A DNA stretch of 64,000 bases. It comes from Candidatus Kaiserbacteria bacterium (GTDB lineage: Bacteria > Patescibacteriota > Minisyncoccia > Phycocordibacterales > Phycocordibacteraceae). The notes beneath the pieces were generated by a model that worked only from the letters and a program-made list of their open reading frames with translations, was not told where the DNA came from and did not search any database. Positions 7,519 through 62,243 of this stretch are shown piece after piece; positions within the stretch are counted from its first letter, which is position 1; each line of letters opens with the position of its first letter. The position numbers and the translations under genes were made by a program. Where the stretch lies: contig JAHFMJ010000002.1 of assembly GCA_023269035.1 (NCBI GenBank), positions 12,671 to 76,670 on the forward strand. Direction: 5' to 3'.

Positions 7519-8082
7519 ATGGTACGCTCCTCAGACATGGAAACAGACGTCATTGAGACTGAAATCGGCGACACGATTGGCATGGTTGATGATCCATCTG
7601 ACGGTGCCAAGCCGACCATCTACGAAGTGGGTTACAACCTGTTAGGGAGCCTCTCTGAAGACCAGGCGGTCTCAGGAGCAGGCGCGGTTCAGGCTATCCT
7701 TAAGTCCGAGGCCATAAGCTTTGTTGGCGAGCACGCTCCGGTCAAGATTTCCCTCGCATACACCATCACCAAGAAGGTAAATGGTAGGAACGAGCGTTTT
7801 GACAGCGCGTACTTTGGTTGGGTCGCCTTTGAGGCTCTTCCTGAAGCTGTTGTCCGTATCCAGGCAGCTCTTGAAGCAGAACAGAACATCCTCCGATTCA
7901 TACTGGTCCGGACAAGCCGAGACGCTGTTGCCGCAGCACAAAGCGGCGCAGTCGAGGCTCCCGTCTTGGGCAATATAGAAAAACCAAAACGCGAGGCTGA
8001 AGCTGGCGGCGAGGTCTCCGAGGCCGCACTCGAGCAAGCGCTCCAAAGCATGGCGACGGAGGACGCCAAGACCGCCGAATAA
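7519..8082 (+). CDS. rpsF: 30S ribosomal protein S6 with acidic C-terminal extension
   Basis: The core (YEVGYNLL…FGWVAFEALPEAVVRIQAALEAEQNILRFILVRT) is S6-like. It sits in an rpsF-ssb-rpsR operon context. The true start may be the internal Met at about 7582. Confidence 0.75.
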   Translation: MVRSSDMETDVIETEIGDTIGMVDDPSDGAKPTIYEVGYNLLGSLSEDQAVSGAGAVQAILKSEAISFVGEHAPVKISLAYTITKKVNGRNERFDSAYFGWVAFEALPEAVVRIQAALEAEQNILRFILVRTSRDAVAAAQSGAVEAPVLGNIEKPKREAEAGGEVSEAALEQALQSMATEDAKTAE

Positions 8083-8531: not shown

Positions 8532-8714
8532 ATGCCAGCACTTCCAAAATACGTAGACTACAAGAACGTCCAGTACCTGAAGACCTTCATGACACCGCAC
8601 GCGCGCATCATGGGTGCCCGTAAGACCGATATCCCTGCAGGCCACCAGCGCAAGGTGGAAGAAGCTATCAAGCGCGCACGCTTCATGGGGCTCCTCCCCT
8701 ACATCGCTCGATAA
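8532..8714 (+). CDS. rpsR: 30S ribosomal protein S18
   Basis: 60-aa S18 core (YVDYKNVQYLKTFMTPHARIMGARKTDIPAGHQRKV…). Confidence 0.9.
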   Translation: MPALPKYVDYKNVQYLKTFMTPHARIMGARKTDIPAGHQRKVEEAIKRARFMGLLPYIAR

Positions 8715-12015: not shown

Positions 12016-14170
12016 CGCTCGTCTCTTCTCCAGAGTTGCCTGCGCCAGCGCTCGTCAGTACGTCACGCGGTCGCGCGCCGTCAGCCGCTCCGATGATGCC
12101 TTTCTCCTCGAGGATGTCCATGAGCCGTGCGGCACGTGCGTACCCAATGCGGAGCTTGCGTTGGAGGTAGGAGGTCGACGCTTTCCCGGCCTCTTCCACT
12201 ATCTGCTTTGCCTCCGCGAACAGGTCGTCGTCCACGTCGTCGTCTTCGAGCGAAGCTGAGAAGATGGCGTTCGGCGATTCGCCCGTCGTTGCCGTCAGCG
12301 TGATCGCATCGAGCGAGACCTCGTTATTTTTCTTGATATAGCTAACGATCGACTTCACTTCATTTTCGGAGATGAACGCGGTCTGGATGCGGTGCGGCTT
12401 GCTCATGTCCGCGCTCTGGTAGAGCATATCGCCGGCACCGAGCAATTTTTCCGCTCCGGCGGCGTCGAGGATGGTGCGCGAGTCTATCTGCGAGGCCACC
12501 TGGAGCGCGAGCCGTGCAGGTATATTCGCTTTGATAGTGCCGGTGATGATGTTGACGCTCGGCCGCTGCGTGGAGAGGACAAGATGGATGCCCACGGCCC
12601 GGCTCATCTGGGCGAGCCGCACGATGCCTGCCTCGAGCTCGCGCGGGTATATCTGCATGATGTCCGCGAGCTCATCGAGTACGATGACGATGAAGGGCAT
12701 CTGATCGGGGGCGTCACCCGTACCATCCCATTTCCCGACGACGTTCTCGTGATACGACTGGATGTCCCGTACTGCCTGCGTCTCGAGGATGTTGTAGCGG
12801 CGCTCCATCTCTTTCGCTGCCCACTTCAGTGAGAGGATTGCTTTCTTCGGGTCGGTAATCACCGGGGTCAGCAGATGGGGGATAGAGTTGTACAGCGTCA
12901 GCTCAACTCGCTTCGGGTCGATCATGATGAAGCGCAATGTTGCCGGGCCGTTGCGATAGAGGAGTGAGGCTATGAGAGCATGTATGGCGACGGACTTGCC
13001 GCTGCCGGTTGCTCCAGCCACAAGAAGGTGCGGCATCTTGGCGATGTTGGCAAAGTGAGACGTTCCCGCGATGTCTTTGCCTAAGCCAACGAGGAGTGGT
13101 CGCTGGTCACCCTGGAACTTATCGTCAGCAAGGAGGGAACCTAAGCCCACAGTCGCCTTCTTGCTGTTGGGCACTTCGATGCCGACAAGCGATTTTCCCG
13201 GTATCGGCGCTTCGATGCGGACAGGTGAGGCAGCAAGCGCGAGCTCGAGGTTGTTCTGGAGCGCGAGGATCTTCTGTAGGCGAACGCCTTCAGCGGGCTT
13301 CAGCGAGTATCGCGTAACCGTCGGGCCGATGGCGACCTCATCCATCTCAACGACGATGCCGAAGTTCGCGAGCGTCCGCTTGATGAGGTTCGCGTTCGCT
13401 TTGATATCGCCGTTATCCGGCTTCCCTTTGTCGCGGTCGAGGAGCGAGAGTGGGGGAGGGTTGTAGGTACTGTCGACTGGAGCAAATGAAATCCCGGCAG
13501 TCTCTTCTTCCCGGATTGGCTCCGATTTTTTTGCCCGTACTTTTTCAGGTATTTGAGGTTTTTCTTCTTCCTCTGCGTTTTCTTCGGATGCGTCTTCCCC
13601 TTCTCCCCCACGAATGGTTAGTGGGGGAGGAACGTCAGTAGCATCTTTTTTCCCAAAAGGGAATGCCGGCAGGGTCAATTTCGGGAGCCCTAGAGGCGTG
13701 TCAAGCGCAAGAAGCGCGCCGACGATAGCGATGCCTATAAGGACGATAGAGCCGAACGTCGTCTCAAAAAGGGATACGAACGGGGTGGCGATCAACCGCC
13801 CCACCATGCCGCCCCAAGCGGCATTGGCGACAGAAAGAAGCGCGATGCCTGAGAGGAAGAGAAGAGTCGCCCCCAGGACGCGCGTACCTCCGAGGCCTGC
13901 TTGTTCGCGCTGACGGACTAACCCGATAGCAAGGAGTATAAGCGAAAGGGGGATAAGAAAATAGCCTATGCCGAATAAGCCTTCTTTGAGGAAAAGATAC
14001 AAGAATTGCCCGGCTTTTCCGCCTCCTCCGAATGAGGCAAAAAGGAACAGTGCTGCAGCAATGCCGGCGAGGATGGAATAGATGCTTCGGGCTGTTTCCT
14101 GCTTTAGATTGAGTGAAGGGTGAGGGAGGTGCAGTTTGTTCTTTTCTCGCTCCTTTTTCTTTGCCATCAA
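12002..14170 (-). CDS. ftsK: DNA translocase FtsK/SpoIIIE
   Basis: N-terminal TM domain, an acidic linker, a motor domain with Walker A (VAGATGSGKSVAIHALI), and a C-terminal gamma winged-helix (YLQRKLRIGYARAARLMDILEE). Confidence 0.9.
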   Translation of the reverse strand: MMAKKKEREKNKLHLPHPSLNLKQETARSIYSILAGIAAALFLFASFGGGGKAGQFLYLFLKEGLFGIGYFLIPLSLILLAIGLVRQREQAGLGGTRVLGATLLFLSGIALLSVANAAWGGMVGRLIATPFVSLFETTFGSIVLIGIAIVGALLALDTPLGLPKLTLPAFPFGKKDATDVPPPLTIRGGEGEDASEENAEEEEKPQIPEKVRAKKSEPIREEETAGISFAPVDSTYNPPPLSLLDRDKGKPDNGDIKANANLIKRTLANFGIVVEMDEVAIGPTVTRYSLKPAEGVRLQKILALQNNLELALAASPVRIEAPIPGKSLVGIEVPNSKKATVGLGSLLADDKFQGDQRPLLVGLGKDIAGTSHFANIAKMPHLLVAGATGSGKSVAIHALIASLLYRNGPATLRFIMIDPKRVELTLYNSIPHLLTPVITDPKKAILSLKWAAKEMERRYNILETQAVRDIQSYHENVVGKWDGTGDAPDQMPFIVIVLDELADIMQIYPRELEAGIVRLAQMSRAVGIHLVLSTQRPSVNIITGTIKANIPARLALQVASQIDSRTILDAAGAEKLLGAGDMLYQSADMSKPHRIQTAFISENEVKSIVSYIKKNNEVSLDAITLTATTGESPNAIFSASLEDDDVDDDLFAEAKQIVEEAGKASTSYLQRKLRIGYARAARLMDILEEKGIIGAADGARPRDVLTSAGAGNSGEETSDEPA

Positions 14171-14316
14171 TGGATTTTAGCACGGTGGCCAACACACCAG
14201 CATGTATAACTAGCGCAGAAGTTTGATTTGTGTCGTAGCCATTTTTTACTCTTGCTAAAGACATTCAAAGGACGTAAGCTTTGTTGTATGTCTAAAAGAC
14301 ACTATTAGTCTCTAAT

Positions 14317-19115: not shown

Positions 19116-19170
19116 AGCTGGGACTTCGCCCAGCAAAACAAAAAGCCCCCTCAGGGGGCTTTTTGTTTTG
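19116..19170 (+). terminator. rho-independent terminator after the giant surface protein gene
   Basis: Two hairpins (gctgggacttcgcccagc and agccccc-tca-gggggct) are followed by TTTTTGTTTTG. Confidence 0.6.
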
Positions 19171-19233
19171 CGTGGTTTCCACTCACACGGTACAATAGTG
19201 CCTTATGACCCCGTTAGAGGCACAGAAATAAGT

Positions 19234-20076
19234 ATGAATGAAGATAAAACTACAACTATAGGTGTATCTAACGGAGCCTCTAACGGGGTGAAATCACTTT
19301 GGATATTCCTTGGCGGGGCAGCACTCATCGTCCTTGCTCTCTCGGGCGTTGCATACTTCGTTGCGAAAGGGGGAAGCGGTAGCGTCGCAACCAGTACTCC
19401 ATCTACGACAAACAATGCCTCTCCCACTCAACAAGCTCCGCATTACACCATCACTCAACTCCCGACGACCAGTATCCGCGACATCATGCCAGACCTCAAA
19501 CACGAGGTTATCTTTTCTGCTTCTGTACCCGAAGCGGCCCGCAAGGTTATCCTTGATAAGGTCCTACCGGCACAAAAGCGCCTTGATGCTGACCCGATGC
19601 GCGCCGATGACTGGTATGATCTTGCGTCGTGGTACCACAGCGCGAACGACTTTGCCGCCGCGGCAGATGTGTGGGTATTCCTCACCAAGGTCATCCCGAC
19701 TGACACGACCGCGTACGACAACCTTGGGAAACTCTACTATCTTTCCCTCAAGGATTTCCCGAAATCAGAATCGTATTTCAAACAGTCGATTAAGATCAAT
19801 CCCGACTCATTCGTCCCCTACTACGAGCTCTCGCAACTCTACACCTATTCCTACAAGATCGACACGACCGCTGCCGTGGATATACTTGAGACAGCTGCGG
19901 TGCGTTTTCCGCAAAATCCGGACCCCTATACCCTTATCGGCATCTACTGGCGCGATCACGCTAACCCAACAAAAGCACGCGACGCGTTCCTGAAGGCGAT
20001 GGACCGTGCCCGCACAGCAGGAGACGTCGGCCAGATCAACGCTATCGGTGATGAACTCGCCAAGCTTCCCCAATAG
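19234..20076 (+). CDS. membrane-anchored TPR-repeat protein
   Basis: N-terminal TM helix (LWIFLGGAALIVLALSGVAYFVA). The C-terminal half contains TPR-like repeats (…AYDNLGKLYYLSLKDFPKSESYFKQSIKINPDSFVPYYELSQLY…). Confidence 0.55.
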   Translation: MNEDKTTTIGVSNGASNGVKSLWIFLGGAALIVLALSGVAYFVAKGGSGSVATSTPSTTNNASPTQQAPHYTITQLPTTSIRDIMPDLKHEVIFSASVPEAARKVILDKVLPAQKRLDADPMRADDWYDLASWYHSANDFAAAADVWVFLTKVIPTDTTAYDNLGKLYYLSLKDFPKSESYFKQSIKINPDSFVPYYELSQLYTYSYKIDTTAAVDILETAAVRFPQNPDPYTLIGIYWRDHANPTKARDAFLKAMDRARTAGDVGQINAIGDELAKLPQ

Positions 20077-20438: not shown

Positions 20439-20936
20439 ATGGCAATTACAAAAGCAAAGAAAGAATCGCTTCTCAAAGGCACCGCTGATGCGCTTGCGCA
20501 GGCGGTGTCGATCGTATTCGTTTCCTTCACGGCTGTGACGGTCGCCGAGGTCAACGAATTGAGGAACGCGCTGAAGAGCGAAGGTGTCAAATACACGGTG
20601 GTGAAGAAGACCCTGCTCAAGAAGGCGCTTACCGAGAAGAACTATGAAGGAGAGATGCCCGAGCTTCCCGGCGAGGTCGCCTTTGCGTACCTCACTGTAG
20701 GGGATGACGTCACGGCTCCTGCGCGCACGCTCCAGACGTTCGTCAAGAAATTCAAGGAAAAATTGATGTTCCTTGGTGCAGTGATGGAAGGGAAGTACCT
20801 TTCCCGCGAGCAGACACTAGCGGTCGCGACTATCCCTCCGGTTCTGGTATTGCGCGGGATGTTCGCCAATATTATTAATTCTCCGATACAGCGTTTCGCA
20901 ATAGCGCTCGGAGAAGTAGCTAAGACAAAGATATGA
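20439..20936 (+). CDS. rplJ: 50S ribosomal protein L10
   Basis: [45 protein letters not shown]… is typical of L10. Confidence 0.9.
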
Positions 20937-21295
20937 CTCAGGATGAAATAATCAATGCAGTAGAGAAGATGAACGTCATGGAACTCAATACGTTGGTAAA
21001 AGCGATTGAGGAGAAATGGGGCGTTTCCGCAACCGCCGTCGCCGCTGCAGGCCCGGCCGCAGGCGGCGAGGCAGCAGAAGAGAAGTCGACCTTCACGGTC
21101 AAGCTTACCGATGCCGGCGCGCAAAAGATCGCCGTCATCAAAGTGGTGAAAGAGGCACTTACGCTTGGCCTCAAGGAAGCGAAGGATCTCGTTGACGCCG
21201 CTCCGTCCGTCCTCAAGGAAGGAGTGAAAAAGGAAGACGCACAGGAGTTGAAGAAGAAGGTAGAAGAGGCTGGCGGTAAAGTTGAATTGTCGTAA
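20933..21295 (+). CDS. rplL: 50S ribosomal protein L7/L12
   Basis: N-terminal dimerisation helix, an Ala/Gly-rich hinge ([15 protein letters not shown]) and the C-terminal domain ([28 protein letters not shown]…). Confidence 0.9.
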
Positions 21296-21348: not shown

Positions 21349-21375
21349 CATCACCGCACAGGTACAATAGCCTGC

Positions 21376-21942
21376 ATGTTCAGAGATGTCGTCCGGCTGT
21401 TAACCTCCACTACCCGCGCCAAGCTTCTCAAGTTCTTTCTTTTCCAGACCGATGGTCGAGCGAACCTCGCTACTACGGTGGCCACACTTGGGCTGAAAAA
21501 GAGTCCCGTAGAGAAGGAACTTTTGCAATTGGCCCGCATGGGCATTCTTATCAAAAAGCAGACAAAAGATAAGATTTTTTTGGTTAACTATGCGCACCCG
21601 CTCGTTGAGCCTCTTCGCATATTTCTTGAGGCGACAACACTGCCCACTGATCGCGAGATCAAAGACGCATTCCGCGGCGTCCGCGGCCTCTCGCTCCTCA
21701 TCGCTAGCGGCGCTCTTGCCCGCGAAAGCCGCAGTTCCATAGACCTGCTCATCGTGGTGGCAAAGAATCCCCACGATCCGCATATCATCCAGGCGGTTAA
21801 GCGTGCGGAACGGCTCAGTGCGTTGCCGCTGCGCTACGCGGTATTTGCCGCGAAAGACTACGAAGAGCGCATCCAGGCCTATGACCGGCTCCTCCGGGAC
21901 GTCTTTGAATTTAGCCACCGGATCATCATCCGAGAGACCTAA
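21376..21942 (+). CDS. hypothetical protein: N-terminal winged helix plus C-terminal minimal nucleotidyltransferase-like domain
   Basis: 188 aa. The N-terminus is ArsR-like wHTH (TRAKLLKFFLFQ…ATTVATLGLKKSPVEKELLQLARMGILIK). The C-terminus has a GS…D.D-like pattern (SGALARESRSSIDLLIVV). Confidence 0.4.
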   Translation: MFRDVVRLLTSTTRAKLLKFFLFQTDGRANLATTVATLGLKKSPVEKELLQLARMGILIKKQTKDKIFLVNYAHPLVEPLRIFLEATTLPTDREIKDAFRGVRGLSLLIASGALARESRSSIDLLIVVAKNPHDPHIIQAVKRAERLSALPLRYAVFAAKDYEERIQAYDRLLRDVFEFSHRIIIRET

Positions 21943-23024: not shown

Positions 23025-26390
<3,366 letters not shown>

Positions 26391-26443
26391 TATAATTATG
26401 CTCGGTGTTCTCGGTGTGATGTGTTGATACGTTGAGTGTTCAG

Positions 26444-26553
26444 TTCTGGTGGCTTGTCAGTGGGGTCATACCTGTTCCCATTCCGAACACAGAAGTCAAG
26501 CCCACGAGAGCCGATGGTACTCCGCAAGGGGGAGAGTAGGTAGTCGCCAGAAC
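26444..26553 (+). rRNA. rrf: 5S ribosomal RNA
   Basis: UCUGGUGGC…CCGAACACAGAAGUCAAGCCCACGAGAGCCGAUGGUACU…GAGAGUAGGUAGUCGCCAGAA, with helix I pairing at both ends. Confidence 0.85.
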
Positions 26554-29697: not shown

Positions 29698-31023
29698 ATG
29701 CCCATAACCCTCCGTCGCGAATCCCTCACGCTCTTCGTGGGGGATATGGTCTTCCTTATCTTGTCGCTCTGGGCGACCTTATTTCTTCGATACGCAGACA
29801 TACCGACGAGCGAGATTTTCTTCGTCCACCTCCTCCCGTTCTCGTTCCTTTTCCTGCTCTCAGCGCTGGTCTTTTTCATCGCGGGTCTCTATGAAAAGCA
29901 CACCCTTCTCTTTAAATCCCAATTACCTGAGACCATCCTTTATGCCCAAGTCGCGAATATTGCCGTCGGCGCCATATTCTTTTTCTTCGTGCCGTACTTC
30001 GGCATCCAGCCGAAGACCAACCTCTTCATCTATCTTCTCCTCTCAACGCTTTTTGTCTCTCTTTGGCGGCTCTACCTCGTGCCTTTTCTCTCGCTCGGTA
30101 CGCGTGCAGAGGCGCTCCTCATTGGCGAGGGAAGCGAGTGCGAGGAAATAATGGGTGAAGTCAACGGCAACAACCGCTACGCCATACGCTTTGTTGGCGG
30201 ATGCGTTCGCCCTGACGATGTGCGTACGCATGAGGCGCTCGCTCGCCGTACCCCGGCAGTCTCCGTCGTCGTGATGCCCTTCTCGTACGGGGCATTTCTG
30301 CCGGAGTGGGATGCGCTCATGTTCTCTGGAGTGCGGTTTGTCGACTCGGCACGTTTGTATGAAGACCTCTTCGATCGTGTCTCGCTTCCCCTCGTCGATC
30401 AGCGTTGGTTCTTGGAAGAGCAGACGCGCACGCGCACCATCATCTACGCGTTCGCAAAGCGTTTAATGGATATAGTAATTTCCGCTTTAGCGCTGGTTGT
30501 GCTCTCGCCGCTTTTCATTCTGGTCCTCTGTATATTTTCGTTCAGTTATGGCCACCCGTTCATTTTTCAAAAACGTGTCGGACAAGGCAATAAGGAGATT
30601 AGAATAATAAAATTCCGCACGATGCTCTTTGACGACTCCGGCGACCCGGAGAAGCAGAAGCAGAATCGCATCACACGCTTCGGTGCCTTCCTTCGCAAGA
30701 CGCAGATAGATGAGATGCCGCAGTTCTGGAACGTGCTTCGCGGCGACCTCTCGCTTATCGGGCCGCGCCCTGAGATCCCTGCGCTCGTCGAGGAGTACAA
30801 GAAGCAGATACCTTTTTATGACATGCGTCACCTGCTTCAGCCGGGCATCTCAGGCTGGGCGCAGATCAAGCACGCAAGCCCGCCGAAGTTCAGCGTCAAC
30901 GTCGAGGCCACGAAGAAGAAACTCTCATATGACCTCTACTATCTGAAGCACCGCTCGTTCCTCCTTGATCTCATGGTCGTCCTTCGCACAATCAAAATAA
31001 TCCTTTCGCGTGCGGGAAGGTAG
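29698..31023 (+). CDS. polyprenyl-phosphate sugar phosphotransferase (WbaP/CpsE-type 'bacterial sugar transferase')
   Basis: N-terminal TM helices plus the C-terminal PF02397-type block (RFGAFLRKTQIDEMPQFWNVLRGDLSLIGPRPEIP…QPGISGWAQI). The start was trimmed to the ATG at 29698. Confidence 0.8.
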   Translation: MPITLRRESLTLFVGDMVFLILSLWATLFLRYADIPTSEIFFVHLLPFSFLFLLSALVFFIAGLYEKHTLLFKSQLPETILYAQVANIAVGAIFFFFVPYFGIQPKTNLFIYLLLSTLFVSLWRLYLVPFLSLGTRAEALLIGEGSECEEIMGEVNGNNRYAIRFVGGCVRPDDVRTHEALARRTPAVSVVVMPFSYGAFLPEWDALMFSGVRFVDSARLYEDLFDRVSLPLVDQRWFLEEQTRTRTIIYAFAKRLMDIVISALALVVLSPLFILVLCIFSFSYGHPFIFQKRVGQGNKEIRIIKFRTMLFDDSGDPEKQKQNRITRFGAFLRKTQIDEMPQFWNVLRGDLSLIGPRPEIPALVEEYKKQIPFYDMRHLLQPGISGWAQIKHASPPKFSVNVEATKKKLSYDLYYLKHRSFLLDLMVVLRTIKIILSRAGR

Positions 31024-31033
31024 AATAGTTGCT

Positions 31034-31945
31034 ATGAAAACATCTCGGAAAGCGATAGTGACGGGCGGTGCAGGGTTTATTGGCAGCAACCTCTCTCACG
31101 CGCTCTGTGAGGCCGGCTGGGAGACGCACATCATCGACCGGGATCCTTCGTTCCGGCGGGCTACACTTCCGAAGGAGGCACAACTCCATGAGGTAGACAT
31201 CCGTTCATGCGAGACGATAGAAGCTATCATGGCGGGCGCTGATGTAGTTTTTCACACTGCCGCCGTGCCTCGCGTCCCGTATTCGATAGAGCATCCTGTC
31301 GAGACGACCGATGAGAATATCACCGGGACGGTCTCGGTGCTCACTGCCGCAGCGCGTGCAAAGGTCCGTCGCGTCGTCTACTCCGCTTCTGGGTCTGCCT
31401 ACGGCAACCAGGAAACATTACCGCTTGGAGAAACATTGCCAGCAAACCCCGTCAATCCTTATGGATTACAGAAGTATGTCGGTGAGCTTTTTGCCAAGAT
31501 GTGGTCAGAGATCTATGGCATTGAGACGGTTTCCCTGCGCTACTTCAACGTCTACGGACCGGGCCTCGACCCCAACGGCCCGTATGCCCTTGCTATCGGA
31601 CGTTTCCTTAGTGCGCGGAAAAACAACGAGCCGATAACCATTTACGGCGATGGCACGGTGACGCGCGACTTCACCCACGTCAGCGATGTGGTCCGCGCCA
31701 ACCTCCTTGCGGCAGAGAGCGGACGGGTGGGGAAAGGCGAGGTGATAAATGTCGGCGCTGGGCGCAACGTCTCTATCAAAGCGCTTGCGGATATGTTTGG
31801 CGGAGAGGTTGTGTATGCTGCGCCACGCATCGAGGCGCATGACTCGCTCGCCGATACCAAAAAGGCAAAGGAGCTCCTCGGCTGGGAGCCGCGCGTACGC
31901 CTTGAAGATGGTATCCTGGAACTGAAGAAGTTATTCGGCATATGA
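31034..31945 (+). CDS. NAD-dependent epimerase/dehydratase (UDP-sugar 4-epimerase-like)
   Basis: Rossmann GxxGxxG motif (VTGGAGFIGSNLSHAL) and a YxxxK-type SDR signature region. Confidence 0.8.
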   Translation: MKTSRKAIVTGGAGFIGSNLSHALCEAGWETHIIDRDPSFRRATLPKEAQLHEVDIRSCETIEAIMAGADVVFHTAAVPRVPYSIEHPVETTDENITGTVSVLTAAARAKVRRVVYSASGSAYGNQETLPLGETLPANPVNPYGLQKYVGELFAKMWSEIYGIETVSLRYFNVYGPGLDPNGPYALAIGRFLSARKNNEPITIYGDGTVTRDFTHVSDVVRANLLAAESGRVGKGEVINVGAGRNVSIKALADMFGGEVVYAAPRIEAHDSLADTKKAKELLGWEPRVRLEDGILELKKLFGI

Positions 31946-35014: not shown

Positions 35015-35698
35015 TTATTCAATTTTCGTCCCGACGAAAGATTTTCCTTCGAGGTAGTTGGTTACTTCGTCCAGCTTCGAGCCATTGATAATGGCTACTT
35101 CAAGGCCAAGCGCTTCCGCTTCTTTTGCGGCTATTGGGTCGAAGGGGGAGGAGAGGCCCGGGTCCCATTTCTCCGGCAAGAGTTTGCGGAACTCTGGCCA
35201 AGTGATTTTTTCTATTGCTGTGGCGGTTGGGTCCTTCTTAGGGTCGGCAGTGTAAGCGTAGTCGATGTTGGAAAGGTTGATGACTTTTTTCGCCCCCACG
35301 TTCTTTGCAAGGAGCACGGCATCGTAGTCGGTGCTCCAGCCCGGCTTCCACCCTGCGGCGATGACTATTTTGTGTGTCGTTGGTACCGCCTCGGTTGGGT
35401 CGGTGTTGATGATCGGGTGTGCCTGTTCGAAAAATATTGAACGGAGGAGATGCGCGTTGAGCCGCGTGGCGTGGATGCCCAGCCAGTCGAGGTCGTCACG
35501 CGTAAGTGGCGTTACTTCATTTGCCGCGTCCTGATAGCGGCGGGCGGTTTTGCCCCCGCCCGTGATGATGATAAACGAGGCTCCTTTCTCGATGTGCGAG
35601 AGGACAAAAACTTTCAGTGCTTTAAGAAAGTTCGTATCGATGGCGTCTGGGACGATGAGGGAACCCCCCACGGAAATGACCAGTGTTTGCTTGTCCAT
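35015..35698 (-). CDS. pyrH: UMP kinase-like amino-acid-kinase family protein (archaeal-type length)
   Basis: 227 aa. N-terminal LVISVGGSLIV…, then IITGGGKTAR… and VINLSNIDYAYTADP. These are aspartate/glutamate/uridylate kinase fold signatures. Confidence 0.65.
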   Translation of the reverse strand: MDKQTLVISVGGSLIVPDAIDTNFLKALKVFVLSHIEKGASFIIITGGGKTARRYQDAANEVTPLTRDDLDWLGIHATRLNAHLLRSIFFEQAHPIINTDPTEAVPTTHKIVIAAGWKPGWSTDYDAVLLAKNVGAKKVINLSNIDYAYTADPKKDPTATAIEKITWPEFRKLLPEKWDPGLSSPFDPIAAKEAEALGLEVAIINGSKLDEVTNYLEGKSFVGTKIE

Positions 35699-35717
35699 AG
35701 GGCCTATAATACCCTAC

Positions 35718-35746: not shown

Positions 35747-36043
35747 GCCCTTTACGCTTGTCTCACGGTAAGCGTCGCTTTAACATCACTATGACTCACT
35801 TCATTCAGTAACCTACCGATCGAAGAGACGTCTGTGTGATGCCGAGGCAAAAGCTTCGGCTTTTTCAATCCCGTGCGCTCGTTGACAACTGAATAACGAA
35901 AGATGCAATCACAAACAAACCAGTCTAAGAAACTAATCCCGACGTAAAAAGTCGGGACCCCGACCTAGGCGTCGGGGGAGCTATTCAATTTCTTCTGTTC
36001 CGACTATCGATCTCGTGCCGCCCAATTGGAGGCATGAGATCTT

Positions 36044-37498
36044 AACTGAGAGTTTGATCCTAGCTCAGGGTGAATGCTGGCGGCGTGGATAAGGCATGCA
36101 AGTCGAACGGGTTTAGACCCGTGGCAGACGAGGTAGTAACACGTAGGAACGTACCCCAAAGTCGGGCATATTCCGTCGAAAGACGGTGCAATTCCCGATA
36201 GTCTCTAAGGAGTAAAGATTTATCGCTTTGGGAGCGGCCTGCGTAATATCAGCTAGTTGGTAGGGTAATGGCCTACCAAGGCTATGACGTTTAGGGGAGC
36301 TGAGAGGCTGACCCCCACCGATGGAACTGAGATACGGTCCTTACTCCTACGGGAGGCCGCAGTCGAGAATCTTCCGCAATGGACGAAAGTCTGACGGAGC
36401 GACGCCGCGTGATGGATGAAGTCCTTCGGGACGTAAACATCTTTTATGAGGGATGAAGTTTTGACAGTACCTCATGAATAAGGGGCTCCTAACTCTGTGC
36501 CAGCAGGAGCGGTAATACAGAGGCCCCAAGCATTACCCGGAATCATTGGGCGTAAAGGGTGCGTAGGTGGCGTTGTTAGTCCTTTCTTAAATTCTCCGTG
36601 CTCAACACGGAGGCTCGAAGGGAAACGGCAATGCTCGAGGATGTACGAGGTACGTGGAACTCATGGTGTAGGGGTGAAATCCGTTGATATCATGGGGAAC
36701 ACCACAGGCGAAGGCAGCGTACTGGGACATTCCTGACACTGAGGCACGAAAGCGTGGGTAGCGAATGGGATTAGATACCCCAGTAGTCCACGCCCTAAAC
36801 CATGTTCTCTAGCTATAAGGAGTATCGACCCTCTTTGTGGCGAAGCTAACGCGTTAAGAGAACCGCCTGGGTAGTACGAGCGCAAGCTTAAAACTCAAAG
36901 GAATAGACGGGAATTCGCACAAGCGGTGGATCATGTGGCTCAATTCGTAGGTAAGCGAAGAACCTTACCAGGGCTAGAAACCTAGCTGCACGCCTCGGGA
37001 AACCGAGGAAGCCTTCGAGGGTGCTAGGCAGGTGATGCATGGTCGTCGTCAGTTCGTGGCTTGAGCTGTTCCCTTAAGTGGGGAAACGAACGCAACCCCC
37101 GTTGTCTGTTTTATATGTCAGGCAAGACAGCTCCCTCACGGGAGAGGAAGGAGGGGATGACGCCAGATCAGCATGTCCCTCTGATGCCCTGGGCTGCACA
37201 CGTGATACAATGGGCGCGACAAAAGGATGCAATACGGTAACGTGGAGCAAATCCCAAAACGCGTCCTCAGTACGGATAGAGGTCTGCAACTCGACCTCTT
37301 GAAGCTGGAATCGCTAGTAATCGTAGGTCAGCCATACTACGGTGAATACGTTCTCGAATTTTGTACTCACCGCCCGTCAACTCAAGGGAGCCGGGAATAC
37401 CCGACGCCCGCGTTTATCGCGGTCCACGGTAAGTTCGGTAACAGGGAGTAAGTCGTAACAAGGCACGGGTAGCGGAAGCTGCTCGTGGAACAATTCCA
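36044..37498 (+). rRNA. rrs: 16S ribosomal RNA (divergent, CPR-like; 3' end approximate)
   Basis: It opens with AGAGUUUGAUCCUAGCUCAG…CAUGCAAGUCGAACGG. The internal conserved regions are recognisable but carry mismatches to universal sites: GTGCCAGCAGGAGCGGTAA versus the 515F consensus, GGATTAGATACCCCAGTAGTCC versus the 806R consensus, and TGTACTCACCGCCCGTCA. Helix 45 is intact (CACGGGUAGC-GGAA-GCUGCUCGUG). About 1455 nt. Confidence 0.85.
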
Positions 37499-37676
37499 TG
37501 CGGAAAACATCTCTCCGAGATTCGTCTCGAAGGATTTATCCGGTCGATTGCCGAAAGGCAGAGTGATGATGTATGACTCTAAACAACATCCGGCACGCAG
37601 ATTGCCGAAACTGCGATAGGCGGAACAGAAGAAAGGGAAGAGCTCTTGGTCACTCTGGTTTGGAAATTCCAGGGAT

Positions 37677-37997
37677 TTACTCGTCTATTTCAGTGTATTT
37701 GATGCGAGGACAATCGGAATGGTAGTGCTTACCATGGTCATCCTCGACGGGGATATTTTTAGTATCGTAAAGCTTGAGTTCGTACTCGTCTATGACGTAG
37801 CTGTTTATCCATTTCTTTAATCCAAAGATCGTATGGCGGCATGACGGACTATCGCAATAGACAGCTGTCTTGTCCCTGCCCTGTTCATCTTTCCCGTGCT
37901 TCCTTTCGGAAACGCGGACTATGTCAGGGCGCTCGTGGCCTGATGCGAATCTCGCATTCATTTTCAGCATAATAACTTCAAAATCATCTTTTGTCAA
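37677..37997 (-). CDS. hypothetical small Cys/His-rich protein in the AT-rich 16S-tRNA spacer
   Basis: 106 aa (…CDSPSCRHT…HGKHYHSDCP…) in a low-GC context between the 16S 3' end and tRNA-Ile. No recognised family. Confidence 0.35.
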   Translation of the reverse strand: MTKDDFEVIMLKMNARFASGHERPDIVRVSERKHGKDEQGRDKTAVYCDSPSCRHTIFGLKKWINSYVIDEYELKLYDTKNIPVEDDHGKHYHSDCPRIKYTEIDE

Positions 37998-41668: not shown

Positions 41669-42091
41669 CTAGAGTTTGAAGTGCGCGGTTGAGTTGAACG
41701 TACGGTAGTCGACCGTCAGCTCTTCTCCTTTTTTTATATCACGCGAAGCGACGAACGTGTCGCCTTCGTCATGTGTCACGAGGTTTGGCTTACGGGAATG
41801 GTTGAGGAAATACGACTTATCCATGGCTTCCAGCCCGAAATCAGGCACGTAATACGCACCATCCTGGAGGGCGCAGAAATCACGCACCATGTCCTTTGCC
41901 TCCTTCGGTGCGTCTATCGCGTCGAGTTCTTTGACCGAAATGCGGAAGGTCCGCTTGCCGCTCTTGCAGTGTTTGAAAGGGGCGGTGCCTTTCGGCATCC
42001 GGCGTACAGCGACGACCCCGACCCCGTGCTTCGTTATGCCGATCCGGCAGTACACGTCGGAGAGCGAGCGGAGGAACTCTTGCTTGTTCAT
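41669..42091 (-). CDS. SET-domain protein (putative lysine methyltransferase), 140 aa
   Basis: It is the C-terminal part of the long antisense ORF 41669-43423, starting from MNKQEFL…. SET signatures are present: GVGVVAVRRMPKGT, YFLNHSRKPNLV (an NHSCxPN-like motif with Cys replaced by Arg) and GEELTVDYRTF. Its stop lies 4 nt from the tRNA-Leu 3' end. Confidence 0.6.
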   Translation of the reverse strand: MNKQEFLRSLSDVYCRIGITKHGVGVVAVRRMPKGTAPFKHCKSGKRTFRISVKELDAIDAPKEAKDMVRDFCALQDGAYYVPDFGLEAMDKSYFLNHSRKPNLVTHDEGDTFVASRDIKKGEELTVDYRTFNSTAHFKL

Positions 42092-42133
42092 GAGGTGATA
42101 TTCTACTATGATTCTTTCTATACCAGAAAACCA

Positions 42134-43450
42134 ATGAACGGAGATACCACTACCGACCACAAAAGACGTTTCCTCTTCGTGTCCTACGAGAACTGCGCGA
42201 GCGATATCGCCTGGCAGGTGGCTAAGGAGGGGAACGAGGTGAAGTTCTATATCGCGAGCAAGGACGACCAGGATGTCGGCGAAGGTTTTTTCGAAAAGGT
42301 CCAGGATTGGAAGGCCGAGGTCGCGTGGGCCGATGTCATCGTGTTCGACGACGTGTTCGGCTTCGGCAACTCCGCAAGCCAGCTGCGCAAGCAGGGGAAG
42401 CTGGTCGTTGGCGGTACCGCCTATACCGACCAGCTCGAGATAGACCGTTCCTTCGGCCAGAGCGAGCTCAAGCGGCTCGGCGTCCCCATACTTAACTATC
42501 AGGAGTTCACCGATTTCGATGCCGGCATTCAGTACGTCAAAGAGCATCCGGATGCCTACGTGATCAAGCCCTCCGGCGCGGCACAGAACCACAAACAGCT
42601 CCTTTTCGTGGGCCAGGAAGATGACGGCGCCGACGTCGTACGTACCCTTGAGGCATATAAGAAGGTCTGGGCGAAACAGATAAAGGTGTTCCAGCTCCAG
42701 AAAAAGGTCTTGGGCGTCGAGATAGCTGTCGGCGCGTTCTTCAACGGTAACCGCTTCATAACCCCGATCAACGTCAACTTCGAGCACAAGAACCTCTTTC
42801 CCGGAAACGTCGGCCCGCCGACCGGGGAGATGGGCACGAGCATGTTCTGGAGCTCGCCGAACAAACTCTTCAACGCAACCCTTAAGAAATTCGAGGAGAA
42901 GCTCGCTGAAGAGAAGTACGTCGGCTACATCGACCTCAATTGCATCGTCAACGGATACGGCATCTACCCGCTCGAGTTTACCGCACGCTTCGGCTACCCG
43001 ACCATCCAGATACAGCAGGAAGGCATGATGATGCCGACTGGCGAGCTGCTCTACATGCTTGCCTCGGGCGCCGACTTCGAGCTCAAGACTAAGAAAGGCT
43101 TTCAGGTCGGTGTCGCGCTTGTCGTTGCACCGTACCCGTACGAGGATAAGCGCATCTTCGACGCCTATTCGAAAGATACGACCATCGTGTTCAAGAAGCC
43201 TAACCAGCTTGAGGGTGTGCACATATCCGAAGTGCGCATGGTGAACGGCGAGTGGGTTGCCGCAGGATTTACCGGCTATCTCATCGTCGTCGTCGGCACC
43301 GGGCAGACGATGAAGCAGGCACAACAGCAGGCCTACAGCAGGGTGCAGAACATACTGATACCGAACATGTACTACCGGACCGACATTGGTGATAGGTGGT
43401 TCGAGGACTCCGACAAACTCCACAACTGGGGGTATCTCCGCGAGTCCTAA
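42134..43450 (+). CDS. purD: phosphoribosylamine--glycine ligase-like ATP-grasp enzyme
   Basis: The tracked ORF 41771-43450 has a non-protein-like N-terminus that is antisense to the SET gene. It was trimmed to the ATG at 42134. The ATP-grasp core and the block YPLEFTARFGYPTIQI match the PurD motif LEFNxRFGDPETQ. About 438 aa. Confidence 0.7.
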   Translation: MNGDTTTDHKRRFLFVSYENCASDIAWQVAKEGNEVKFYIASKDDQDVGEGFFEKVQDWKAEVAWADVIVFDDVFGFGNSASQLRKQGKLVVGGTAYTDQLEIDRSFGQSELKRLGVPILNYQEFTDFDAGIQYVKEHPDAYVIKPSGAAQNHKQLLFVGQEDDGADVVRTLEAYKKVWAKQIKVFQLQKKVLGVEIAVGAFFNGNRFITPINVNFEHKNLFPGNVGPPTGEMGTSMFWSSPNKLFNATLKKFEEKLAEEKYVGYIDLNCIVNGYGIYPLEFTARFGYPTIQIQQEGMMMPTGELLYMLASGADFELKTKKGFQVGVALVVAPYPYEDKRIFDAYSKDTTIVFKKPNQLEGVHISEVRMVNGEWVAAGFTGYLIVVVGTGQTMKQAQQQAYSRVQNILIPNMYYRTDIGDRWFEDSDKLHNWGYLRES

Positions 43451-44148: not shown

Positions 44149-45479
44149 TGCTCCGAGGTACAATACCGAATATGAAGGAATGGAAACCGCTTGCCAAGCG
44201 TTTTATCTTCGAGCGTTTTGACATTGAACCCGAGAACGGCCGTATTGCTTTTGTGTATACGACGGATGCAGGACATTCTTTCACCCATGAACTCAGCTAT
44301 GACTTTCCCAAAAATGTGAACGTACAAGAGCTCATCCCAGCGGCTTTTGCGCTCGGCATGGCAGAGCTCGCGCATTTTTGGAAAGCGACCCTTGCTCCGG
44401 AGATTCTCGTGAAAGCGGGCGCACTTTCCAAAGACCAAATCGCGTTCTGGGAAAATCTTTACACCAAAGGGCTCGGTGAGTTTTTTTATGTCAATCAGAT
44501 AGATTTTCGCGGTCTGATACAGATAGCTAGCGCTCCGAAGGTGCCGGAAATTCGACCCGCGGGAGGCACTCGGGCGCCAAATCGTGCGCTGGTCCCCTTT
44601 GGCGGCGGTAAAGACTCCTTGGTCACGGGGGAGATGCTTAAGAAGCAAGAAAAAGGGTTTTCGTGGTTCGAGCTTGAACCACTGCCTTTCGGAAAAAAAC
44701 TACGAGAAATATCAGGCGTTACCACATGCGTGAGCATGGGCCGTAACGTGGCGAGGAACTTTGCTTCCATTATGGATCTTGTTCGACAAGGAGCCCCGAA
44801 CGGCCACGTACCCATTACAGCGACCTATATGTTTAGTGCCGCCTTTGTTGCGCAGGCGGAGGGTTTCTCCGATATCGTGATGTCGCTCGAGAGGAGTGCA
44901 GACGTCGGGAATGTTGAGTACCTCGGTCAGATGGTGAATCATCAGTATTCGAAAAGTCTTGAGTTTGAAATCATGGCGGCAGAGTATATCCGCACCTATA
45001 TCAACCCCGATCTGCGGCTCTTCTCGCTCCTGCGACCGCTCTATGAGATACAGATAGCGCAGGAGTTCGCAAAGCACTCCGAATATTTCTCCTCCTTCAT
45101 CTCTTGCAACCGCGGCCTTAAGACAGGTACTTGGTGCGGAGAATGTGCAAAATGCGCTTTCATGTTCGCGGCGCTCTCGGCATTTCTCCCACCTCAGACG
45201 GTTGTTGGTATCTTTAAAAAGAACCTCTTTGAGGACACGCTGCTTCTACCACTGTATACCGATATGATAGGCCTTGGCAGTATGAAGCCGTTCGACTGTG
45301 TCGGCACGTTTGAAGAAAATCTCCTCGCGCTCTTTCTCTCGGGAGAACAGTATAAGAAAGTAGGCATGTCACTACCGGCCATCCTCATGCAATTGCCAAT
45401 TGCAAAGGGCGGAGAGCACACAGGATTGCTTACCGAACGCGGCGACCACCGCATCCCGAAAGAGTATAGGTATGAATAG
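44148..45479 (+). CDS. PP-loop ATP pyrophosphatase-family protein with QueC-like core and extra N- and C-terminal domains; candidate MurL-type (UDP-MurNAc-L-Ala-L-Glu) epimerase
   Basis: 443 aa. A PP-loop SGGxDS-type motif (LVPFGGGKDSLV) sits at about residue 155. A QueC-like zinc motif C-x9-C-x2-C-x2-C (SCNRGLKTGTWCGECAKCA) sits at about residue 330. The start codon (GTG at 44148 or ATG at 44172) abuts or overlaps the CofE-like stop, and the 3' end overlaps the murD start by 8 nt. The gene itself is confident. The functional call is a hypothesis. Confidence 0.45.
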   Translation: MLRGTIPNMKEWKPLAKRFIFERFDIEPENGRIAFVYTTDAGHSFTHELSYDFPKNVNVQELIPAAFALGMAELAHFWKATLAPEILVKAGALSKDQIAFWENLYTKGLGEFFYVNQIDFRGLIQIASAPKVPEIRPAGGTRAPNRALVPFGGGKDSLVTGEMLKKQEKGFSWFELEPLPFGKKLREISGVTTCVSMGRNVARNFASIMDLVRQGAPNGHVPITATYMFSAAFVAQAEGFSDIVMSLERSADVGNVEYLGQMVNHQYSKSLEFEIMAAEYIRTYINPDLRLFSLLRPLYEIQIAQEFAKHSEYFSSFISCNRGLKTGTWCGECAKCAFMFAALSAFLPPQTVVGIFKKNLFEDTLLLPLYTDMIGLGSMKPFDCVGTFEENLLALFLSGEQYKKVGMSLPAILMQLPIAKGGEHTGLLTERGDHRIPKEYRYE

Positions 45480-51612: not shown

Positions 51613-51659
51613 AAAATCTGCTACTGGAAACCAGAGTTGGGAAGCGTTACACTGCAAGG

Positions 51660-53123
51660 ATGGATTGGGGTGGCACGGTTACCTACCTCGCAGAAACTTC
51701 GCTCAAAGGGCGCTCGGTACCCTTTGGCATAAAGGACCAAGACCGTTTTGCGCATGTCTGCGTGATGGGACGGGCAGGGAGCGGACGCGCAGCACTCCTC
51801 GCTCGCATGGCCCTGCAGGATATCGAGCGCGGCGTCGGGACCGTCATCTTGGATGCCTCAGGCAACCTCGCACCCCTTCTCGTCGAAAGGCTCTCCAAGG
51901 ATGTTCGCGAACGGCTCATATTCCTCGACCCTGCTGACGCGGAGTATCCGTTTTCATGGAATCCGCTTGATGAATTCCGGGCGCTCCCTTCCGAGCGGGC
52001 ACTGCCTGTGCTCTCGAGTGCGATCGCGAGCCTCTACCGCATCCCCTCGAGCGCATTGACCGACACGCTCGCGAGCCACCTTCTCTCGAACAACGAGTCG
52101 ACGATGCTCACCGCGTACGACCTCCTGACCGATCCGGTGGTGAGGGAGAAGGCGTTCGGCACGGACTCTGACGAGCGTAAAAACTTTGAGACCATCATGA
52201 GCGATGCCGCGGAGAGCGTCGCGATTGTCACCGAGCAAGGCCGCTACCTCGCCAAGGATTCATTGGTGCGTAACCTCATCGGACAGAGCACATCCAAATT
52301 CTCTCTCGCGGCGCTTGAGAAAGGCGGCATCATCGTTGTCGACCTCTCTCGTATCCGGATGTTCCCGACGCGCATCACCCCCCTGGTACGGCTCTTCACC
52401 CATGCAGCGCGTTCCCGCGGGCTCAGCAATTCCCCGGTGACTGCATTCCTTCATGATTGCCTGCGCTACCTTGCCGAAGAGGATATCGACCGCATCCTTC
52501 CTGAGCGTTCCGTCGCGCTTGTCATCGCAGAGAGCATCCATACCGAGGAAGACAAGCCACTTCGTGATAAGGCCCTCGCACGGAGCGGTTCCGTCATCGC
52601 CTTTTCGTCACGCGAGGAAGACCTCGCCTCCGTTGAACACCTCTTCTATCCGTACGTTTCTCCTGAAGAGCTTGCGCTCTTGGAGGAAGGGGAATGCTGC
52701 ATCGCGCTCACCATCGACTCGGTCCGCTCGCGGCCTTTTTATGCGCGCGCGCTTTCCCTCCCGGAGCGGACGGGATGGTCGGCGCACGACGCTCTTGCTA
52801 TCTCACGGGAACGCTCCACGACGCCGCGCATCAAGGTCGACCAGCTTTTCAAAGAGAAGGGCTCTTCTGACGAGAAGAGTGAAAAAGGGAAGGGTAAAGA
52901 CGATGACCCTGGTTCGTTCTCAAGCGCGTTCCGTTCGATCTTCGCCAAGCAAGCTGGCACGACCGGGGCGCCATCCGCGCCTGCAAAGCCGGGGACTACG
53001 ACAGAGACCGAAAAAGTGAAAGAAACCAAAGAAGCGAAGAAGGCGCCTGCGGCGGTGAAGCCTTCGGAGATCCCGGAAGAGGAGCTCCGTCGCATGCTGT
53101 ATGTGGAACCGATGCCAGCATAG
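51660..53123 (+). CDS. P-loop NTPase of VirD4/TraG/HerA-like (DUF87-type) family with degenerate Walker A and a Lys/Glu-rich low-complexity tail
   Basis: VCVMGRAGSGRAALLARMA has an Arg where the Walker A Lys is expected. It also carries …ILDASGNLAP…IFLDPADAEYPFSWNPLD…. The C-terminal 90 aa are K/E/T/P-rich. Confidence 0.45.
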   Translation: MDWGGTVTYLAETSLKGRSVPFGIKDQDRFAHVCVMGRAGSGRAALLARMALQDIERGVGTVILDASGNLAPLLVERLSKDVRERLIFLDPADAEYPFSWNPLDEFRALPSERALPVLSSAIASLYRIPSSALTDTLASHLLSNNESTMLTAYDLLTDPVVREKAFGTDSDERKNFETIMSDAAESVAIVTEQGRYLAKDSLVRNLIGQSTSKFSLAALEKGGIIVVDLSRIRMFPTRITPLVRLFTHAARSRGLSNSPVTAFLHDCLRYLAEEDIDRILPERSVALVIAESIHTEEDKPLRDKALARSGSVIAFSSREEDLASVEHLFYPYVSPEELALLEEGECCIALTIDSVRSRPFYARALSLPERTGWSAHDALAISRERSTTPRIKVDQLFKEKGSSDEKSEKGKGKDDDPGSFSSAFRSIFAKQAGTTGAPSAPAKPGTTTETEKVKETKEAKKAPAAVKPSEIPEEELRRMLYVEPMPA

Positions 53124-61616: not shown

Positions 61617-61628
61617 TATTGTCCGTAT

Positions 61629-62243
61629 ATGAGTCTCATCGCTTTGCTCAAACGCATACCTGTTGATTTTGGGATGGAGAATCTCAAATACACAACCAAA
61701 GGCAAGGAAATCGCTTTGGCGTTCGTGGGCCAGGGCAGCGCCGGAGCGACATTGCTCGATGTCGGTTGCCGCGACGGTTATTTCAGCCGCTTATTTGAAA
61801 AGCGCGGGTTTACCGTGACGTCCATCGATATCGAGTGCAAGTGGGACAAATGCAGCGTGGTCGATGCCAATAAGCCGCTCCCGTACCCCGATAACTCGTT
61901 CGACCGCATCTGGTGCTCCGAGGTCATCGAGCACCTTATCGATCCGGCAAAAACCATTGCCGAATTTCGACGCGTCCTGAAGCCGGGCGGTATCGCGGCC
62001 ATCACGACCCCGAACTCGACGTTCTGGCTCTATAGCGTCCTACGCTTGTTCGGCAAGACGCCGAAGGACGTTCAAAATAAGACGCACATTCACTTTTTCG
62101 GAAAAAGCGATTTACAGCCACTTTCTCCCGCAGACAGCATGATCTACGGCTTCTTCCCGTACCTCGGTCCACGGTTCCGCATCAGCCGCGGCGTCGGCCT
62201 GCTCTCGCCGACGTTCGTCTTTGCTATACGGAAACAAGCATGA
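61629..62243 (+). CDS. class I SAM-dependent methyltransferase
   Basis: Motif I (LLDVGCRDGYF) and the post-I/II regions (IWCSEVIEHLIDP…VLKPGGIAAITTPN) are present. Confidence 0.8.
   Translation: MSLIALLKRIPVDFGMENLKYTTKGKEIALAFVGQGSAGATLLDVGCRDGYFSRLFEKRGFTVTSIDIECKWDKCSVVDANKPLPYPDNSFDRIWCSEVIEHLIDPAKTIAEFRRVLKPGGIAAITTPNSTFWLYSVLRLFGKTPKDVQNKTHIHFFGKSDLQPLSPADSMIYGFFPYLGPRFRISRGVGLLSPTFVFAIRKQA

Follow-up and report, generated by a model that had tools for sequence, protein, structure and literature searches.

The 16S rRNA of a Paceibacteria genome fragment lacks the CCUCC anti-Shine-Dalgarno core, as do nearly all sampled members of its clade

We analysed a 64,000-nucleotide (nt) stretch of a Candidatus Kaiserbacteria genome (assembly GCA_023269035.1, contig JAHFMJ010000002.1, positions 12,671 to 76,670; hereafter the window), in which the 3′ tail of the 16S ribosomal RNA (rRNA) carries AUUCC at the place of CCUCC, the core of the anti-Shine-Dalgarno (anti-SD) sequence. 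The 16S gene in the window has truly lost this core. The explanation that we favor, with a probability of roughly three in four, is that CCUCC was lost clade-wide, that no replacement Shine-Dalgarno (SD) sequence evolved, that translation begins at open or leaderless start codons, and that the tail has been kept for its pairing with the trailer of the pre-16S transcript.

Results

The 16S rRNA tail carries AUUCC in place of CCUCC

The only 16S rRNA gene visible in the window occupies positions 36042–37500 of the + strand (Rfam RF00177, 1364.6 bits, model positions 1–1533), and its length of 1459 nt is of the reduced type found in the Candidate Phyla Radiation (CPR). The end coordinate 37500 is the end of the Rfam SSU_rRNA_bacteria model, and the mature 3′ end is accordingly a predicted one. 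In a second Rfam scan, restricted to 37150–37750, the tail GAACAAUUCCAUG (37488–37500, + strand) aligned with model positions 1521–1533, GAUcACCUCCUUu, with maximal posterior probability in all columns. This tail takes the place of the consensus bacterial tail GAUCACCUCCUUU and stands at the position of GAUCACCUCCUUA; the same tail is found in relatives with 91–96% identity. Because model positions 1521–1533 align to 37488–37500, the anti-SD core CCUCC is replaced by AUUCC at 37493–37497 (+ strand). The window tail also has GAACA where the Era-recognition motif GAUCA stands.

Immediately upstream, helix 45 (37464–37487, + strand) is a 10-bp stem with a GGAA tetraloop, recovered by the covariance model (CM) alignment, by the minimum free energy (MFE) fold and by covariation. 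Its arms are CACGGGUAGC (37464–37473) and GCUGCUCGUG (37478–37487), separated by the loop at 37474–37477. Across 96 distinct sequences 99.9% of the alignment cells of this helix are paired, with double changes at 7 of the 10 pairs. The initial annotation of the stretch had described helix 45 as intact with its GGAA loop and the tail as having exchanged CCUCC for AUUCC. Both descriptions hold, with the correction that its tail string began one base too early, on the last G of the helix, and the alignment to the small-subunit model runs continuously to position 1533 with no insertion and no CCUCC.

The loss is shared across the clade

One genome per species was searched for the 530-loop signature GCCAGCAGGAGCGGTAATAC, which returned at least 120 loci, and metagenomes were searched for the window's own tail type, which returned at least 96 contigs; both sets are samples and not a census. 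Nearly all of the genome loci carry the labels Parcubacteria, Paceibacterota, Kaiser-, Adler-, Nomura- or Zambryskibacteria, or Minisyncoccia. On the strength of the 530-loop signature, the 16S identity of only 84–87% to the best genome matches (Kaiserbacteria and Paceibacterota metagenome-assembled genomes, among the matches listed) and the reduced 1459-nt 16S gene, the window organism is assigned to the Parcubacteria/Paceibacteria (Patescibacteria, CPR; class Paceibacteria/Minisyncoccia). The gene content of the window is typical for a reduced CPR genome, and its G+C content is 54.6%.

Among the matches listed, 75 loci have a readable 16S 3′ end, and CCUCC is missing in 70 of them. The five that keep (C/U)CUCC, again among the matches listed, are L026 (Kuenenbacteria), L044, L069, L097 and L116 (Peribacteria). 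Tails of the CCUCC-less loci include GGAAUAAUUCA, GGAUUAAUUCC, GGAACAUAUCC and GGAUUAACUCA. Close lineages differ at the former core, with AUUCC, AUUCA, ACUCA, UAUCC and UUUCA all represented, and GAUCA drifts to GAACA, GAAUA and GAUUA across the clade. At shorter distance the tail is stable: GGAACAAUUCC is present in 13 of 13 metagenome contigs that are 91–96% identical in 16S, among the matches listed. Across 74 clade members the only conserved bases of the anti-SD site are the U at 37495 (invariant) and the C at 37496 (at least 90%). The loss of CCUCC is clade-wide, in nearly all sampled members. It had initially been presented as a feature of one gene, a view that is superseded by the 70 of 75 loci and by a publication of 2022, discussed below.

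At 36494–36520, the 530-loop region of the window has the sequence CUCC...GCCAGCAGGAGCGGUAAUAC, in which the GGC/GCC pseudoknot pairs have changed in a compensated way. More than 120 Parcubacteria species share this change; it produces a mismatch to the universal 515F primer, which explains why this primer misses these organisms. Identical RecA together with the same ftsK-recA-sigma-efp-rpsR order was found on short contigs of three European Nucleotide Archive (ENA) metagenome assemblies (L218, L219; ERZ27297344, ERZ27280176); independent samples thus contain the same organism.

The former anti-SD bases are predicted to pair with the trailer

Covariation identifies the former anti-SD bases as the 5′ arm of a predicted 3–5 bp hairpin whose 3′ arm is made by the opening bases of the trailer; clade-wide, these arms co-vary. 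In the window the hairpin (37494–37505, + strand) consists of UUCC at 37494–37497, a loop AUGC at 37498–37501 and GGAA at 37502–37505. The arms change together among relatives, as UUCC:GGAA, UUCA:UGAA, CUCA:UGAG, UCCA:UGGA and UUUC:GAAA. UUCC tails have GGAA after them in 16 of 26 cases and UGAA in none; for UUCA tails the figures are 20 of 63 with UGAA and none with GGAA; and 4 of the 5 CUCA tails have UGAG next.

A stem of at least 4 bp is present in 43 of 74 sequences. Shuffling the trailer within each sequence gives 11.4 such stems (max 21), and swapping trailers between sequences gives 30.9 (max 40 in 1000). An ungapped MAFFT alignment of the tails placed the 3′ arms out of register, and a covariance model was used instead. 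In the resulting alignment of the 96 distinct sequences the hairpin is 92% paired, with both-side changes at 3 of the 4 pairs. Sliding the partner by 1–3 columns lowers the pairing of the whole structure, counted over both helices together, from 97.8% to 30–55%. RNAalifold predicts the tail-trailer helix independently.

The five canonical-tail relatives have an equivalent hairpin, CUCCU:AGGAG. The anti-SD/trailer hairpin CCUCCUUUCUAAGGAGG of these Patescibacteria shares the position and the geometry of the one in the window. Bacillus-type rrn operons have the anti-SD/trailer hairpin CCUCCUUUCUAAGGAGG as well. What sets the window's clade apart is that both arms have drifted jointly from CCUCC/GGAGG: the pairing is conserved and the sequence is not. 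We found nothing relevant to an anti-SD/trailer hairpin in the literature searched.

The most likely role of the hairpin, as we infer it, is in 3′-end maturation or quality control of the pre-16S rRNA rather than in mRNA binding. The main competitor to this role is that mature 16S rRNA retains the hairpin, as an additional terminal helix that would cap the 3′ end and sequester it. In its favor, the clade conserves both the 3′ arm and an RAAYCG-like motif that follows it, and a capped end would also account for the lack of mRNA pairing reported below. Against this, the stem is kept while the loop varies freely (AUGC, AUGA, UGA, CGA, AAGA, UAU) in relatives above 91% 16S identity, as expected of a spacer; the hairpin is very weak; and in the canonical-tail relatives the same hairpin uses the anti-SD as an arm, which there is presumably freed by processing. 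We consider a permanent terminal helix unlikely, with perhaps some chance of being right, and retain the maturation role.

A second hairpin, CGAGA-UUCG-UCUCG, follows in the trailer at 37516–37529 (+ strand) in the MFE fold, and a covarying hairpin occupies the same place in relatives. There it has a longer covarying stem, often with CUCGUACGAG or UUCG at its apex, and is followed by CUGA.

Upstream regions contain no SD signal for the canonical or the new tail

Genes of the window were called as the longest non-overlapping open reading frames (ORFs), each read from its first ATG, which gave 55 genes with approximate starts. Each gene was scored by the best duplex energy of its −20 to −1 region with a 13-nt rRNA tail, in comparison with shuffled upstream regions. 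With the canonical tail the 55 genes scored −3.51 kcal/mol, versus −3.75 kcal/mol for shuffled sequence (one-sided p = 0.66), and with the organism's own tail they scored −2.63 versus −2.79 kcal/mol (p = 0.65). The same procedure applied to 50 kb of Escherichia coli gave −5.45 versus −3.88 (p = 0.00025); with annotated starts the E. coli mean was −6.4, and a core SD tetramer was found in 24 of 42 genes. Restricting the analysis to the 25 genes of the window with Pfam-anchored N-termini gave the same answer (−2.8 with the canonical tail, −2.4 with the organism's own).

This result extends to relatives. For 348 genes that flank the 16S gene in 70 relatives with non-canonical tails, each scored on its own tail, the energy was −2.30 versus −2.30 in shuffled sequence; with the canonical tail it was −3.17 versus −3.09. 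The canonical-tail CPR relatives contribute only 26 genes, which have a core SD tetramer in 6 cases versus 3 in the control and score −3.62 versus −3.08 kcal/mol, a difference that is not significant.

Motif counts in the window agree. Neither GGAGG nor AGGAG occurs at −22 to −1 of any of the 55 genes (expected 1.2 and 1.7), and GGAG, GAGG and AGGA are at or under expectation in the same region. No SD was found upstream of tatD, ssb, folD, secF, recA, rplJ, rplL and efp. The initial annotation was thus right that most start codons here lack GGAGG-like motifs, and right about five of these genes (tatD, ssb, folD, secF and recA). Because pairing with the canonical and with the organism's own tail sits at the shuffled background, the data support initiation that is independent of SD, in which base pairing with the rRNA tail does not recruit mRNAs.

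SD-independent initiation had been proposed side by side with an altered SD, and energy scans against both tails, in the window and in the 348 genes of relatives, uphold the first and speak against the second. As a re-coded SD/anti-SD pair, the new tail CAAUUCC would bind GGAAU(UG) upstream of genes. GGAAT indeed lies directly before the metG ATG, as had been noted; it occurs three times in all upstream regions of the window, metG included, where 0.8 is expected, and GGAATTG is found 17–23 nt before the rpsF ORF start. However, the metG motif (−7 to −3) leaves only 2 nt before the ATG, too few for SD-like spacing, and the enrichment upstream covers all AT-rich k-mers, not GGAAT in particular. 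The sequence fully complementary to the tail, GGAATTG, was counted 9 times in the window versus 8.9 expected, and the tail complement is not enriched 5–12 nt upstream of starts. The tail also differs between close lineages, which makes an altered SD unlikely, as a co-evolved SD would not tolerate such variation. With own-tail duplex energies, k-mer enrichment and GGAATTG counts all negative, an altered SD is largely refuted and its probability is very small. No replacement SD has evolved.

Start regions are A-rich and open, and some genes are predicted to be leaderless

Start codons lie in a short A-rich, GC-low and weakly structured stretch. The MFE of the 40 nt centered on the start codon is −3.6 kcal/mol, versus −7 to −10 elsewhere; GC content at starts is 41% versus 56%, and A content is 34% versus 21%, reaching 36–43% at positions −12 to −7. 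T occupies position −1 in about 45–49% of starts in the window and in relatives, including genes that lack the −10 hexamer described next, and C is common at −2 of window starts; these may be a start-context preference.

We searched upstream regions for a −10-like hexamer, defined as TAnnnT with at least four of six matches to TATAAT. The hexamer begins at −12 or −13 in 8 of the 55 window genes (about 15%), on a background of about 0.34 hits per position, and a Poisson estimate puts the probability of this count near 1e-6. Among the 348 genes of relatives it begins at −12 in 42 genes and at −13 in 19, with a background of 6.8 per position (binomial p about 1e-20). These 61 genes have T at −15 in 71% and G at −14 in 69%, which is the TGn of an extended −10 element, and 59 of them start with ATG. 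The E. coli control has the hexamer at that place in 1 of 42 genes and lacks the peak.

A −10 box at this position ends 7 nt before the ATG, and the transcript would therefore start at the A of the ATG. Genes with the extended −10 (TGnTAnAAT), about 15% of the total, are accordingly predicted from promoter position to be leaderless, a prediction that applies clade-wide. The window has eight such predicted starts. The first, on the + strand at 649–663, has TATAAT at 649–654 and its ATG at 661. The stretches from a −10-like hexamer through the start codon for five further + strand starts are 21363–21378 (start codon at 21376), 31021–31036 (31034), 44159–44174 (44172), 51648–51662 (51660) and 61617–61631 (61629), and for two on the − strand 14165–14179 (14167) and 35696–35711 (35698). 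We found no report of a leaderless promoter signature in Patescibacteria in the literature searched.

The processing context argues against a misplaced 3′ end

The 16S gene is enclosed by a 32-nt inverted repeat whose leader arm (35978–36009, + strand) is 88% complementary to its trailer arm (37614–37645, + strand). This helix is the usual processing stem of the pre-16S transcript, and its trailer arm sets a limit to where the mature 16S 3′ end can be made. An Rfam scan of the trailer found rRNA only.

The mature rRNA could nevertheless carry CCUCC if the predicted 3′ end were wrong, because the tail is displaced or an insertion is spliced out, or if the genome had another rRNA operon, outside the window, whose tail is canonical. 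CPR 16S genes often have insertions, UCUCC does occur in the trailer at 37514–37518, and the window shows 64 kb of the genome. Against a wrong end, the uninterrupted CM alignment leaves no place for an insertion, the leader-trailer helix closes the transcript unit at 37645, and UCUCC is not found in the trailers of relatives with 92–96% identity. CCTCC within 150 nt after helix 45 occurs in 12 of 116 non-canonical loci, at scattered positions, versus 7.3% of random windows. A search of the + strand from the 16S gene to the trailer arm found no GATCACCTCCTT with up to two mismatches; with CCTCC in relatives at chance, a displaced canonical tail was rejected, and we regard a misjudged 3′ end or a canonical second operon as very improbable.

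That the gene is a decaying pseudogene, or its tail an assembly error, has no specific support beyond a tail unusual among bacteria in general, and it is effectively refuted by the conservation of the identical tail in independent assemblies from many environments, in keeping with a full-length, high-scoring match with helices 44 and 45 intact, a 530-loop change that is compensatory and not disruptive, and a conserved leader-trailer processing helix around the gene.

Relation to known systems

Anti-SD loss has been described in this group. Tsurumaki et al. 2022 (RNA 28:1041, PMC9297842) detected CCTCCT in only 48% of Parcubacteria 16S genes, noted that the lineages without the motif overlap the group lacking uL1, and thought that SD helices do not form there (PMC9297842). 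Their Parcubacteria subgroup is the same clade with the same trait, and the window is an instance of this published trait: the loss is real but not new. Their account is a two-sentence observation, without a test for a compensating SD, the replacement tail, the tail-trailer hairpin or a leaderless promoter signature. Our literature search found no compensating-SD test, leaderless signature or co-varying tail-trailer hairpin for this clade. The three additions made here, namely the absence of a compensating SD, the leaderless or open starts and the tail-trailer covariation, are modest extensions.

In the window the rplJ-rplL genes (20439–21295) are preceded by a TPR-repeat gene (19168–20076) and not by rplK-rplA, a context that is compatible with the uL1-lacking Parcubacteria group and does not prove the absence of rplA.

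The Bacteroidia, with SD-blind ribosomes (Jha et al. 2021; PMC13000453), resemble the window in having no SD, there genome-wide and here in the 64 kb read, and in having A-rich, unstructured starts. They differ in that they keep CCUCC, hidden in a pocket of bS21, bS18 and bS6, for rpsU autoregulation and 16S maturation; the window shares the SD depletion, but it has lost the sequence itself. Two proteins of that pocket are encoded in the window, bS6 by the ORF at 7519–8082 and bS18 by the ORF at 8532–8714. The bS6 ORF encodes 187 amino acids, of which only residues 35–131 form the S6 domain; the N-terminal extension is acidic and the C-terminal tail long. Tsurumaki et al. (PMC9297842) mention that bS6 is enlarged in CPR.

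Two other comparisons concern initiation without SD. Mammalian mitochondria have a small-subunit rRNA, 12S, that is of bacterial descent and, like the 16S rRNA of the window, has no anti-SD (PMC10582724). Mitochondria have few mRNAs and dedicated activators, whereas the window belongs to a free genome with hundreds of genes and ordinary bacterial promoters and operons. Mammalian mitochondria translate leaderless or near-leaderless mRNAs. Actinobacteria and Deinococcus are said to be leaderless-rich in the genome classes of Zheng et al. 2011 and of GeneMarkS-2. They reportedly share with the window a −10 box at a fixed short distance from the ATG and a near-exclusive use of ATG. In contrast to the window, which has no SD class at all, they are said to keep the canonical anti-SD and to use SD on leadered genes.

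Other features of the window

The rRNA genes of the window are unlinked. The 23S and 5S genes (23043–26552) lie 9.5 kb upstream of the 16S gene, and the interval contains protein genes of both strands. A 23S gene within the 8 kb examined around the 16S gene was found at 0 of the 120 genome loci, among the matches listed; at locus L198 the order 23S-5S...16S is again seen, and about 9 kb separate the two parts. The 23S rRNA (23043–26375) measures 3333 nt versus 2925 model positions and contains several insertions, for example one of 50 nt near model position 228; Rfam assigned no intron family to these insertions.

At 41669–43450 there are long ORFs on both strands, each with Pfam matches. In the minus-strand ORF the match is to a C-terminal SET domain; the plus strand has GARS (purD) domains. 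Two shorter genes, convergent or overlapping, are the probable arrangement, and gene calling by ORF length is misleading there.

Discussion

The loss of CCUCC was probably permitted because Era and bS21, which elsewhere place two constraints on the tail, are reportedly missing from most of this class. Era binds GAUCACCUCC beside helix 45, and most CPR have lost this protein (PMC10582724); era is mostly missing in Paceibacteria (PMC12641178). In Flavobacterium johnsoniae, which ignores SD, the anti-SD is still required for translation of rpsU (bS21) and for 16S maturation (PMC13000453), and bS21 is often missing from Parcubacteria (PMC9297842). With both constraints gone, trailer pairing would be the sole remaining constraint on the tail, which fits the conserved U and C at 37495–37496, the otherwise free drift of the tail and the variation of GAUCA.

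Several points weigh against this explanation. On its own the tail-trailer hairpin has a folding energy of −2.8 kcal/mol, which is thermodynamically weak, and the MFE fold of the window pairs the GGAA arm further downstream instead. The CM alignment was fitted to the proposed structure, and the sequences counted are related, so that the counts overstate their independence. A small SD-using minority could escape detection among the 55 genes of the window, whose starts were set by a crude ORF rule and are anchored by Pfam domain positions in 25 cases. The evidence for leaderless transcription is promoter position, and the absence of era, rpsU and rplA is taken from literature at the level of the class, against 64 kb read of this genome.

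It is conceivable, and we suggest it tentatively, at somewhat less than even odds, that the whole class Paceibacteria translates without an rRNA-mRNA helix, with the former anti-SD serving only as an arm of a maturation hairpin and with translation beginning at leaderless and A-rich internal starts. The anti-SD is among the most conserved of bacterial sequences, and lineages without it reveal which other features define a start and for what reasons the sequence is kept elsewhere. In practical terms, gene finders that model SD will misplace starts in these genomes. If this class-wide reading is true, the near-universal conservation of CCUCC in SD-poor bacteria would stem mainly from ribosome biogenesis, through Era, bS21 autoregulation and trailer pairing, and the Paceibacteria would be a natural experiment in which those biogenesis constraints have been lifted.

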